Shown piece by piece: positions 62,368 to 64,000 of a stretch of 64,000 bases of DNA. How positions within the stretch are numbered: position 1 is the stretch's first letter; each line of letters begins with the position of its first letter. Source of the DNA: an uncultured Candidatus Saccharibacteria bacterium (GTDB lineage Bacteria > Patescibacteriota > Minisyncoccia > Phycocordibacterales > DSPV01); contig CAZTXT010000002.1 of the NCBI GenBank assembly GCA_964617735.1, positions 12,536 to 76,535 on the forward strand, in the 5' to 3' direction. A program made the position numbers and the translations under genes. The notes beneath the pieces are model-generated. The model had not been told where the DNA came from. It saw only the letters and a list, made by a program, of their open reading frames with translations, and ran no database searches.

Positions 62368-63294
62368 GTTCACCCGAGCATCACCGTAGGCGAGTGCTTT
62401 AGGGTACCATTCTCTATTTTGTTCCGTTCATGTATCGGTCTTTCCCGACAGCCATATGCCCTATAGGAGTGGCACATCTCCTAGCGATCGCTTGTGACGA
62501 TTGCTAACCGACCTATCAGACCTCGTACGCAGTGCGCAGAGATCAATGATCCTTAAAATATTCCACGAGCAGCTTCCGCTACCCGTGCCTTGTTACGACT
62601 TACTCCCTGTCACCGAATTTACCGTGACGCCCCCGAAAGGACGCTTCAGGCACTCCCGGCTCCCTTGAGTTGACGGGCGGTGAGTACAAGACTTGAGAAC
62701 GTATTCACCGCGGTATAGCTGACCCGCGATTACTAGCGATTCCGGCTTCATGAGGTCGAGTTGCAGACCTCAATCCGAACTGACGCCGCTTTTTTAGGAT
62801 TGGCTCGGCCTTTACATCGGCGTTGCATCCGTCTGTAGCGGCGATTGTATCACGTGTGTAGCCCAGGGCATCAGAGGGCCATGCTGATTTGGCGTCATCC
62901 TCACCTTCCTCTCCCGTGAGGGAGCAGTCTCGCCAGACATTTAAAACTGGCAACGAGGGTTGCGTTCGTTACCCCACTTAAGGGAACAGCTCAAACCACG
63001 AACTGACGACAACCATGCAGCACCTGTCTAATCGTCCTTGTGAGACGAGTAATCTTTCGACTACTCTTCGATTAGATTTCAAGCCCTGGTAAGGTTTTTC
63101 GCTTGTCATCGAATTAAACCACATGATCCACCGCTTGTGCAAGTCCCCGTCTATTCCTTTGAGTTTTAGCCTTGCGGCCGTACTACCCAGGCGGATGTCT
63201 TAACGCGTTAGCTTCGTCTCTCAGAGGGTCGATACTCCGAAAAACCAGACATCATCGTTTAGGGCGTGGACTACTGGGGTATCTACAATGTTGT

Positions 63295-64000
63295 TACTGC
63301 TTGCACACTTTGTTGAAAGGGCCACACTCGTGACCCATGAATCTTAGCGAAGGTTTTCTTTAACCTTTACACCAAGATGATTCGCGATTTTTCGGGCTTT
63401 CTTCCTCATTTGGTAGAGTTGACGGCTCCGGTCCCTATTCGAGTGATAGGATAATGGACTTTTTAAAGCAATCAACTCTATGCCGCTGATATGGACCTCG
63501 ATACAGAAGCCTCCCCATCCGGATCGGTCGCCATCCCATTCGATGAGTTTAACTGATGGTACTCTCATAAATCGCTCCTTTCTATTTTCTCTCAACAAAG
63601 TGTGCAAGCTGGTGCGGGCATTTCTGCCGCACTCTTACGATCGCTCGTAAGTTCGGACTATATCTTCCCGATCATTCGCTGTTAGGCGAAGTGATTTAGG
63701 GTTTGGCGTATAGTCTCTACGGGTTCCTGCATAGTAGGCAGTGGAGCGAACCGATCACTCGGTTCGCTTGTGGTCTGTAGCGTGCTTCTCAAGATATGCT
63801 GTGTCCTTCCCTTCGCCTTTATTGAGGCTACTGGTCACGGTGTGTAGAGGATATATCCCCCACCAGCTCCACTTTCGTCGCTTCTGCAGTCCACTGCCTA
63901 CTATGCAAGCCTTCCCTCGGGATTGTCTCCTGTTACAGAGAGTTTCCCCGATATAGCCACCAAAGCACTTTCGTTACCGAAATGCTTGGTCCAATCATTC
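63295..64000 (-). other. insertion in the 16S rRNA gene of at least 700 nt (putative self-splicing intron/intervening sequence), extending beyond the window
   Basis: No 515-535 block (TTACCGCGGCKGCTGGCAC) or other 5' 16S blocks occur between 63295 and 64000. Long-range 18-bp inverted repeats sit at 63299-63316/63592-63609 and 63728-63745/63890-63907. There is a local 9-bp hairpin at 63746-63767. Confidence 0.5.
63344..63607 (-). CDS. small ORF (87 aa) inside the 16S insertion, possible intron-encoded protein
   Basis: The ORF is bracketed exactly by the 18-bp inverted repeat and is basic and Arg/Lys-rich. No LAGLIDADG, GIY-YIG or HNH motif was recognised. Confidence 0.25.
   Translation of the reverse strand: MHTLLRENRKERFMRVPSVKLIEWDGDRSGWGGFCIEVHISGIELIALKSPLSYHSNRDRSRQLYQMRKKARKIANHLGVKVKENLR

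Follow-up and report, generated by a model that had tools for sequence, protein, structure and literature searches.

A probable group I intron between U788 and U789 of a Patescibacteriota 16S rRNA gene, with a small-protein reading frame of the EWDGDRS family

The 16S ribosomal RNA (rRNA) gene on contig CAZTXT010000002.1 of an uncultured Candidatus Saccharibacteria bacterium (assembly GCA_964617735.1) is interrupted by a 1122-nucleotide (nt) insertion that is very likely, with a probability of about 0.9, a group I intron inserted into the 790 loop of helix 24, with U788 on its 5′ side and U789 on its 3′ side. The numbering is that of E. coli, which we take from the positions of the primers 785F and 806R. 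The analysed stretch, referred to below as the window, covers 64,000 nt (contig positions 12,536 to 76,535) and holds the gene on its minus strand. It includes the 3′ exon and intron nt 408–1122 of 1122 (the 3′ 715 nt; 63286–64000, minus strand, as assigned from the Rfam model RF00028, a public contig, homologues and covariation), and a window coordinate equals 64408 minus the intron nt. For the first 407 intron nt, which the window does not reach, the sequence comes from the public contig L001. Within the intron, a peripheral stem encloses an open reading frame (ORF) for a protein of 74 amino acids (aa), P0001, which belongs to a family of small proteins designated EWDGDRS. A preliminary description of this DNA had proposed a self-splicing intron or intervening sequence near position ~785; the first of these kinds is the one favoured by the data, and the site can now be given exactly.

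When the Rfam model of bacterial small-subunit rRNA (RF00177, SSU_rRNA_bacteria) is compared with the minus strand, the score is 630.9 bits, reliable only for model positions ~756–1533, and the alignment is unbroken from model position ~784 to 1533 over 62551–63285. This segment is the 3′ exon (E. coli 789 to the 3′ end), with U789 at 63285. The block of the 806 region, ggactactggggtatcta, is read directly at 63268–63285, one position away from where it had been reported (63269–63286), and 16S similarity, earlier said to stop at ~63295, does stop, at 63285/63286. From 63286 to 64000, the covariance model gives no 16S alignment. The reported lack of any 5′-half 16S block upstream thus stands because this whole stretch is intron, and the thought that it might align as divergent 16S helices is answered by the covariance models, which find a group I core there and no 16S.

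Both junctions are present in L001, a 1254-nt public contig (Logan assembly of SRR12313479) located by looking up the ORF product. It is 100% identical to the window across an overlap of 745 nt, extends 510 nt further and carries the whole 1122-nt insertion. Its 5′ exon terminates in ...GCGAAUGGGAU (in a longer reading, ...GAAAGCGUGGGGAGCGAAUGGGAU), then comes the insertion, and the 3′ exon starts with UAGAUACCCCAGUAGUCC. Joining the exons produces GGGAU|UAGAUACCCC, in a longer reading GGGAUUAGAUACCCC, which is the bacterial 16S consensus and the universal 790-loop sequence; this fixes the insertion point precisely at the U788/U789 junction, and removal of the insertion restores the host gene, as expected of a group I intron.

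The Rfam group I model (Intron_gpI, RF00028) matches the insertion, on the strand that carries the rRNA, with 21.6 bits (E=0.004) in the window and with 28.8 bits (E=4e-5) in L001. The alignment assigns P3, P4, P5, P6, P7 (AGACUA), P8, J8/7 (GAAGAUAUAGUC), and P9, so that the catalytic core by which group I introns are recognised, namely the P3-P8 and P4-P6 domains, the guanosine-binding helix P7 and J8/7, is in place. Extra hairpins and a 184-nt insertion within P6 lower the score. Since it falls below the RF00028 gathering threshold of 50 bits, relatives at the same site were sought. The 715-nt stretch folds at z = -6.8 relative to shuffled sequences, and its minimum-energy fold contains the inverted-repeat stems. 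An RF00028 assignment of P1 to 63960–63989 was dropped, as L001 puts the exon 408 nt further upstream, and weak Rfam matches to a snoRNA and a long non-coding RNA (E 0.9 and 2.9) were dismissed as chance. Promoter-like and terminator-like sites within the intron occur at chance level only, which gives no support to an internal promoter.

The relatives were collected by scanning one genome per species for a G directly before UAGAUACCC, the signature of a G-ending intron at this site. The scan yielded 119 loci, of which ~75 are 16S genes with insertions of 268–1415 nt at exactly 788/789, and these ~75 introns share a 3′ tail ...GYAACANNNNUG right before UAGAUACCC. Among 17 other genomes and contigs scanned with RF00028, the site-788 intron reaches at least the gathering score in 9 (50.2–72.4 bits). 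The hosts are mostly Patescibacteria, together with many Actinomycetota (Solirubrobacterales, Acidimicrobiia), one Gemmatimonadales genome and a few others. Introns at the site thus occur beyond the candidate phyla radiation (CPR), as in L002, L003, L005, L009, L021, L024, L027, L036, L038, L049-L051, L054, and L057, among others; minimal ORF-less forms of 268–295 nt and forms of ~880 nt with LAGLIDADG genes are both found there. The nearest core to the intron described here (82% over 152 nt) is found in a Candidatus Taylorbacteria genome (L047), and a metagenome scan with the P8 sequence returned only a Taylorbacteria intron copy and one fragment. The Taylorbacteria 16S gene itself (L047, 1-4081) is broken into several pieces by Rfam, and a related contig (L133, 8485-8629) has a second, weaker group I match; for these two reasons, that gene probably carries several introns.

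Covariation was tested in 25 non-identical introns sharing sequence anchors, over the segments of P3, P7, P8 (outer pairs), J8/7, P9, and P9.1. The structure was written down before the test, yet it had been derived from the same sequences. Standard pairs occupy 93.9% of cells, against 30–41% when the partners are slid by 1–3 columns, a margin of which a part is expected from the way the structure was derived. Changes on both sides are seen in 21 of the 31 pairs, and this count is not explained by the origin of the structure; the observed covariation score was reached by none of 500 shuffles. Compensatory changes affect all seven pairs of P9.1, five of seven in P9, all five outer pairs of P8 and four of six in P3, while P7 is invariant. 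Taken with the exon pairing described below, the comparison supports the predicted helices P3, P8, P9, P9.1, and P10.

Introns at this site define their 5′ end in two styles. In the first, the guide is located directly 3′ of the splice site, GGGAU|CAAUCUGGUCCC. In the second, to which the present intron belongs, the intron starts with (C/U)(A/G)AC(G)UUCGC..., and the guide UAG(G)UCCC comes 70–330 nt later, after (A/G)GGGUA(C/U). Here, the guide GGUCCC (L001 262-267, ~160 nt into the intron) pairs with the exon GGGAU plus the first intron base, which produces the U·G wobble at the 5′ splice site; the UAGUCCC-type guide is kept in the sub-class, with G·U variants. In P10, GGGGUAU (L001 244-250) is paired to AUACCCC, the exon stretch from +4 to +10. 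At exon +10, the pair with the intron is C-G in 8, U-A in 9 and U-G in 1 of 22 style-2 introns and is mismatched in 4; it is thus kept in 18 of the 22, and this covariation between intron and exon supports P10. A wider complementarity, 76% over 17 nt (L001 244-260 / 1218-1234), spans the 3′ splice site. The intron ends with ...CAUUG, its last base (63286) being the terminal G, omegaG, typical of the class.

If the element functions as its structure predicts, the precursor rRNA would fold and an external guanosine would attack after U788, whereupon the freed 5′ exon would attack after the terminal G at 63286. Ligation of the exons would give a normal 16S rRNA with a junction reading GGGAU-UAGAUACC. 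The two long inverted repeats of the window would serve as peripheral stems holding large loop insertions clear of the core.

Within the window, the intron can be followed on the minus strand, in the direction of transcription, from the window end. The window end cuts P2.1, of which the 3′ half is included (63990-64000); this half and the P2.2 hairpin (63960-63989), both of them extra elements between P2 and P3, are drawn from the minimum-energy fold and L001. The 5′ strand of P3 (UGGCUA, 63954–63959) is assigned by Rfam and by family covariation with 63702–63707. P4-P5-P4′ (CGGGG AAA CUCUCUGUAACAGGAGAC AAU CCCGA, 63917–63950) has an Rfam posterior near 1 and also appears in the minimum-energy fold. 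P6 with its 184-nt extension occupies 63721–63916, on the evidence of the Rfam insertion, the repeats and the minimum-energy fold. The P6 arm is closed by a perfect 18-bp stem (63728-63745 / 63890-63907), in which all 18 of 18 positions are complementary and not 18 of 19 as first described, and it bears a hairpin with a 4-nt loop (63745-63754 / 63759-63768) that has 10 bp rather than the 9 first counted. The homologous P6 loop in L121 houses the ORF of that intron. The 5′ strand of P7 (GUAGAGACUA, the guanosine-binding site) and then the 3′ strand of P3 (GCCAAA) lie at 63702–63718 according to Rfam, followed by the P8 hairpin (63667–63701; Rfam, covariation). J8/7 with the 3′ strand of P7 (AAGAUAUAGUCC, 63655–63666) is invariant in the 25 introns and fits the Rfam consensus. 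The P9 hairpin (CUUACGA GCGA UCGUAAG, 63634–63651; Rfam, covariation) is paired in 98% of cells, and P9.1 (GUGCGG CAGAAAUG CCCGCAC, 63612–63632) is supported by covariation in the 25 introns.

Next to P9.1 stands P9.2, the stem that encloses the ORF, with its 5′ arm at 63589–63609 and its 3′ arm at 63299–63319. The two arms form a 21-nt inverted repeat, 95% complementary, which includes as its core the perfect 18-bp repeat noticed initially (63299-63316/63592-63609). By a rough estimate, perfect 18-mers paired within 800 nt are expected by chance at ~1e-5. The basal part of P9.2 is common to an ORF-less intron (L064) and the distal part to ORF-bearing ones (L047, L134); at the 5′ arm, the 24 nt CUUGCACACUUUGUUGAGAGAAAA are identical in L134. 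The intron closes with a 13-nt 3′ tail, AGUAACAACAUUG (63286–63298), recognised from the tail consensus and from the L001 244-260 pairing and ending in omegaG. The long-range helices of the preliminary description are therefore real, but they are peripheral stems, the P6 extension and P9.2, and do not frame the ends of the insertion.

From an ATG at 63568, the ORF runs on the minus strand to 63344 and encodes 74 aa before its stop. It had been described as a basic 87-aa frame at 63344-63607 inside the first stem; a frame from TTG does exist between the arms and its product is basic, but homologues and public gene calls begin at the ATG, and the extra 13 residues overlap the stem arm. Public assemblies call the identical protein at 74 aa. 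A Shine-Dalgarno-like AAAGGAG (63575–63581, minus strand, by direct reading) lies 6 nt before the ATG and is also found upstream of the ORF in L047 and L134. The protein has a net charge of +8 and a pI of 10.3. Judged by its relatives, the ORF is a real, conserved gene.

These relatives are few. A word-indexed search of 5.8 billion proteins returned only the protein itself, HMMER over 1.8 billion representatives found six small relatives, and a profile search brought the EWDGDRS family to ~17 proteins of 70–87 aa, the 16 relatives being 31–46% identical. E10, D14, R15, R47, and L51 are invariant in the family, and W11, D12, G13, S16, G19, G20, F21, R55, and E71 are near-invariant. P0004 (635 aa), a eukaryote-like repeat protein read as a C2-domain protein, was matched via WDWD...GRG.FLG and was rejected as spurious. 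Neither the ORF nor any of the 16 family members has a Pfam match at E<=1 beyond scattered noise, and neither the ORF nor the family alignment has a meaningful match in PHROGs or among PDB sequences. In agreement with the preliminary description, no recognisable LAGLIDADG, GIY-YIG or HNH motif is present, and sequence, profile and fold comparisons likewise give no match of the ORF to the His-Cys box or PD-(D/E)xK families. The AlphaFold2 model (pLDDT 87, pTM 0.75) predicts a beta-beta-beta-alpha-beta order and has no significant Foldseek neighbour (E at least 0.5, TM 0.3–0.57).

Three members found by protein search are intron-borne (P0001, P0002, and P0006), and all are located at 16S positions 788–793, in two loops and at two sites. 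P0002 (L121, groundwater) belongs to an intron of the same kind, ending ...GCAACAAAAUUG|UAGAUACCCCAGU, and its ORF is placed in the P6 loop just ahead of CAGAGACUAUACGC. The intron around P0006 (L134), also in a 16S gene, has a group I core scoring 67.4 bits and shares the P9.2 arm of the present intron. The 5′ exon of L134 runs on to ...GGGAUUAGAU|AC, and this intron (1-729) therefore sits after U793; its guide GUGUCU matches the U793 site. The combination suggests that an intron moved from one of these neighbouring sites to the other, or that the 3′ module was exchanged between introns. A divergent ORF occupies the same P9.2 stem in L047 (and also in L133), with an hhalign probability of 96%; this Taylorbacteria copy has lost the acidic motif, which reads EYGGRY. 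No other members are as basic as the intron-borne ones (net +5 to +11).

Outside introns, the neighbours of the free-standing members are varied: a polynucleotide kinase, with an RNA ligase upstream (L123, 526-4219), a histidine phosphatase (L127, 5001-5956), a metallophosphoesterase (L126, 481-1835), an overlapping or adjoining helix-turn-helix gene (L128, 1694-2136), and EF-G, downstream of which the member in L130 is located. Such neighbours, among them genes for the end-processing of nucleic acids, may point to a connection with RNA repair or with a module of toxin-antitoxin type. The family was not found in a scan of viral contigs or by tblastn in 50,697 phage genomes, and the term “phage-like” for L123 and L127 therefore refers only to gene organisation and to the PHROG matches of their neighbours.

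Most style-1 sibling introns encode LAGLIDADG proteins of 205–290 aa, and the EWDGDRS ORF takes the niche held in these siblings by such homing endonuclease genes. Other introns of the same sub-class (L103, L100, L007, L010, and L067) have in their P5 or P6 loops different ORFs of 80–130 aa without LAGLIDADG, which may represent further unannotated families of intron-borne proteins.

Like known homing endonuclease genes (reviewed in PMC3984707), the ORF lies in a peripheral loop of a group I intron, is met in different loops of related introns and has free-standing relatives in phage-like DNA and one degenerate copy; in contrast to them, it has no sequence or fold match to the known endonuclease families. 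Loop switching, free-standing relatives and a degenerate copy together correspond to the life-style described for such genes (PMC3984707), although a splicing helper tied to an intron lineage would fit the same data. A role of the ORF in intron mobility or splicing is thus plausible from sequence comparison, and the best guess is that the intron profits from an action of its protein on nucleic acid. That it is a nuclease promoting spread into intron-less 16S genes is a tentative proposal, which we hold to be possible but short of probable, and a function as a splicing helper seems rather unlikely. At 74 aa, the protein is, to our knowledge, smaller than any characterised homing endonuclease.

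A comparison with RNase HI gives a lead only. The predicted order beta1-beta2-beta3-alphaA-beta4 is that of the N-terminal half of RNase HI, and, by eye, acidic residues are seen where beta1 ends (EWDGD versus TDGS), where the helix starts and in beta4 (E71), with GGF at strand 2 and an Arg-rich helix in the ORF protein. Chains of RNase H and of Argonaute PIWI turn up repeatedly among the weak matches from Foldseek. An hhalign comparison of the family with E. coli RNase HI puts GGF on GGY in the expected register, but its probability of 0.9% is not significant. The ORF protein lacks the C-terminal half, where RNase HI has its fourth carboxylate, and membership in the superfamily is not established by these likenesses.

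Several points weigh against the reading as a self-splicing group I intron whose ORF serves it. The intron's own scores of 21.6 and 28.8 bits are under the RF00028 gathering threshold; its own P3 has four contiguous pairs only; and P1, the guide and P10 lie outside the window and are read from the single contig L001, which is possibly from the same sample. Splicing at 788/789 is deduced from the sequence. On the side of the ORF, the use of AAAGGAG as a ribosome signal is doubtful because the host 16S rRNA has no CCUCC; comparisons by sequence and by fold give no significant match to a nuclease or RNA-binding family; and most family members are free-standing, outside introns.

A rival reading is that the intron is real but that the ORF, without a part in intron biology, is a small phage-derived passenger gene in a tolerant loop, persisting or decaying. 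This account is a serious one, to be given not much less than an even chance: some of the mostly free-standing family members lie in phage-like contigs by genes for polynucleotide kinase, RNA ligase and phosphatase, the Taylorbacteria copy has EYGGRY in place of the acidic motif, and the ORF matches no endonuclease family. However, for random passengers it would be unexpected that the three intron copies from the protein search all lie at 788–793, in two loops and at two sites. Within the family, the basic charge is highest in the intron-borne copies, and free-standing relatives are typical of true homing endonucleases too (PMC3984707).

Two other explanations concern the insertion itself. It might be an intervening sequence processed by RNase III, as in bacterial 23S rRNA, leaving the 16S rRNA unligated and in fragments; perfect long stems of 17–21 bp do exist inside the insertion, and unligated intervening sequences probably occur in CPR bacteria (PMC11270868). 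An inverted-repeat search of L001, however, shows that the ends of the insertion are not paired with each other and that all long stems are internal, which argues against an RNase III-type element, and a complete group I core, a U·G splice site, a terminal G and a covarying P10 are present. Also counted against it is that a break in the 790 loop would split a functional centre of the small subunit; altogether, this explanation is very improbable. Equally hard to credit is an assembly chimera or dead 16S gene, with the 3′ half joined to unrelated sequence, since, even though the window ends within the insertion with the 5′ half unseen there and rRNA regions assemble poorly from metagenomes, the independently assembled L001 is identical over 745 nt and has both exon junctions, the exon sequences are intact and conserved, and the same nucleotide is the insertion point in ~75 other genomes.

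The group I intron has a further peculiarity upstream of its core. A perfect 17-bp stem in P2 (L001 277-293 / 451-467) encloses a 90-nt element (L001 305-396; ~115–205 nt past the window end at 64000) that is scored by the Rfam tRNA model with 43.8 bits (gathering score 29) and has canonical acceptor, D and T arms. In place of the 7-nt anticodon loop of a cloverleaf, it has 26 nt, and the alternative offered by ARAGORN, a tRNA-Arg(CCU), was rejected for two mismatches in its anticodon stem; the element is therefore called tRNA-like and not a tRNA gene. The minimum-energy fold of the P2 domain favours a competing GGGAGGG/CCCUCCC helix. No such element was present in the other introns of the set (~75 at the site), and no relatives were found in metagenome or viral contigs by exact and degenerate scans or in the fetched loci by BLAST. 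It may be either functional or a decayed captured tRNA.

One could combine these features into a bolder proposal, in which EWDGDRS proteins would be a new class of very small intron-associated nucleic-acid enzymes, recruited from phages, that mobilise introns into 788–793, with the tRNA-like module of P2 functional as well. Such a proposal is quite improbable as a whole. Under it, the protein would possibly be a half-size RNase H-like nuclease working as a dimer, the source genes would be phage genes beside RNA end-healing enzymes, and the tRNA-like module would be a handle for a tRNA-processing or tRNA-binding factor and not debris.

As a group I intron in a CPR rRNA gene, the element is well explained as a further example of a known phenomenon. 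Insertions occur in 48% of the 16S genes of CPR bacteria, 35% of these match Rfam group I (PMC11270868), and the preliminary description was right to call this kind of insertion typical of these bacteria, group I introns being frequent in their 16S genes (PMC11270868). The introns surveyed there (Tsurumaki et al. 2024, PMC11270868) agree with the present one in host group, gene and class of ribozyme, and they too are large and hold their ORF in a peripheral loop. The ORFs annotated in them are almost all LAGLIDADG or GIY-YIG, and long unannotated insertions were noted (PMC11270868); unlike these, the present intron has a 74-aa ORF without a known domain, and this copy would be missed at the Rfam gathering threshold. 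We found no earlier description of the EWDGDRS family as an intron passenger or of a tRNA-like module inside such an intron.

Outside bacteria, S788 is a known insertion site of nuclear introns of subgroup IC1 (PMC8395846). The nuclear introns, e.g., Mcr.S788 of Mucilago crustacea (PMC8395846), share with the present one the site in E. coli numbering and P2.1, P9.1, and P9.2, but differ from it in that the host here is a bacterium, the P1 loop is ~140 nt long and P10 involves exon +4 to +10 rather than +1 to +6. The bacterial 16S group I introns of Salman et al. 2012 (cited in PMC3984707 and PMC11270868) are alike in gene and class, some with homing endonuclease genes, and unlike in host phylum. 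What is added here is an exact map, backed by covariation, of 788/789, an intron site that is very common in bacteria and shared with eukaryote nuclear introns, as well as evidence of its occupancy in Actinomycetota besides CPR bacteria. The J8/7 and P7 sequences (AAGAUAUAGUC, AGACUA) resemble those of Tetrahymena-type IC1 introns. The introns of Salman et al. 2012 reportedly occupy sites 795, 1078 and 1495, which differ from 788.

In practical terms, rRNA introns explain why many CPR bacteria escape 16S primer surveys, and the present one falls within the 785F/806R primer site. The work also adds a small protein, conserved but unannotated, in the place usually taken by a LAGLIDADG gene; if it were indeed a nuclease or a splicing factor, its family would be new and very compact, with a tool-like character.

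Finally, several observations concern the host gene and its surroundings. The host is a bacterium of the Parcubacteria/Paceibacterota type, the closest 16S among the fetched loci (86%) being that of a Candidatus Taylorbacteria genome. The 3′ tail of its 16S rRNA (62551-62566, minus strand) reads ...GUGGAAUAUUUUAAGG, without the anti-Shine-Dalgarno CCUCC, which is likewise missing from four related Parcubacteria-type 16S genes (L100, L104, L086, and L022). A GGAG-like motif is located upstream of only 8 of 48 long ORFs in the window, against a background of 12%. On the 3′ side of the 16S gene (59501-62550, minus strand), there are a 164-aa ORF, tRNA-Ile(GAU), pyruvate kinase and tRNA-Leu(CAG) rather than 23S, and because no 23S gene follows the 16S gene, the rRNA genes of this genome appear to be unlinked.

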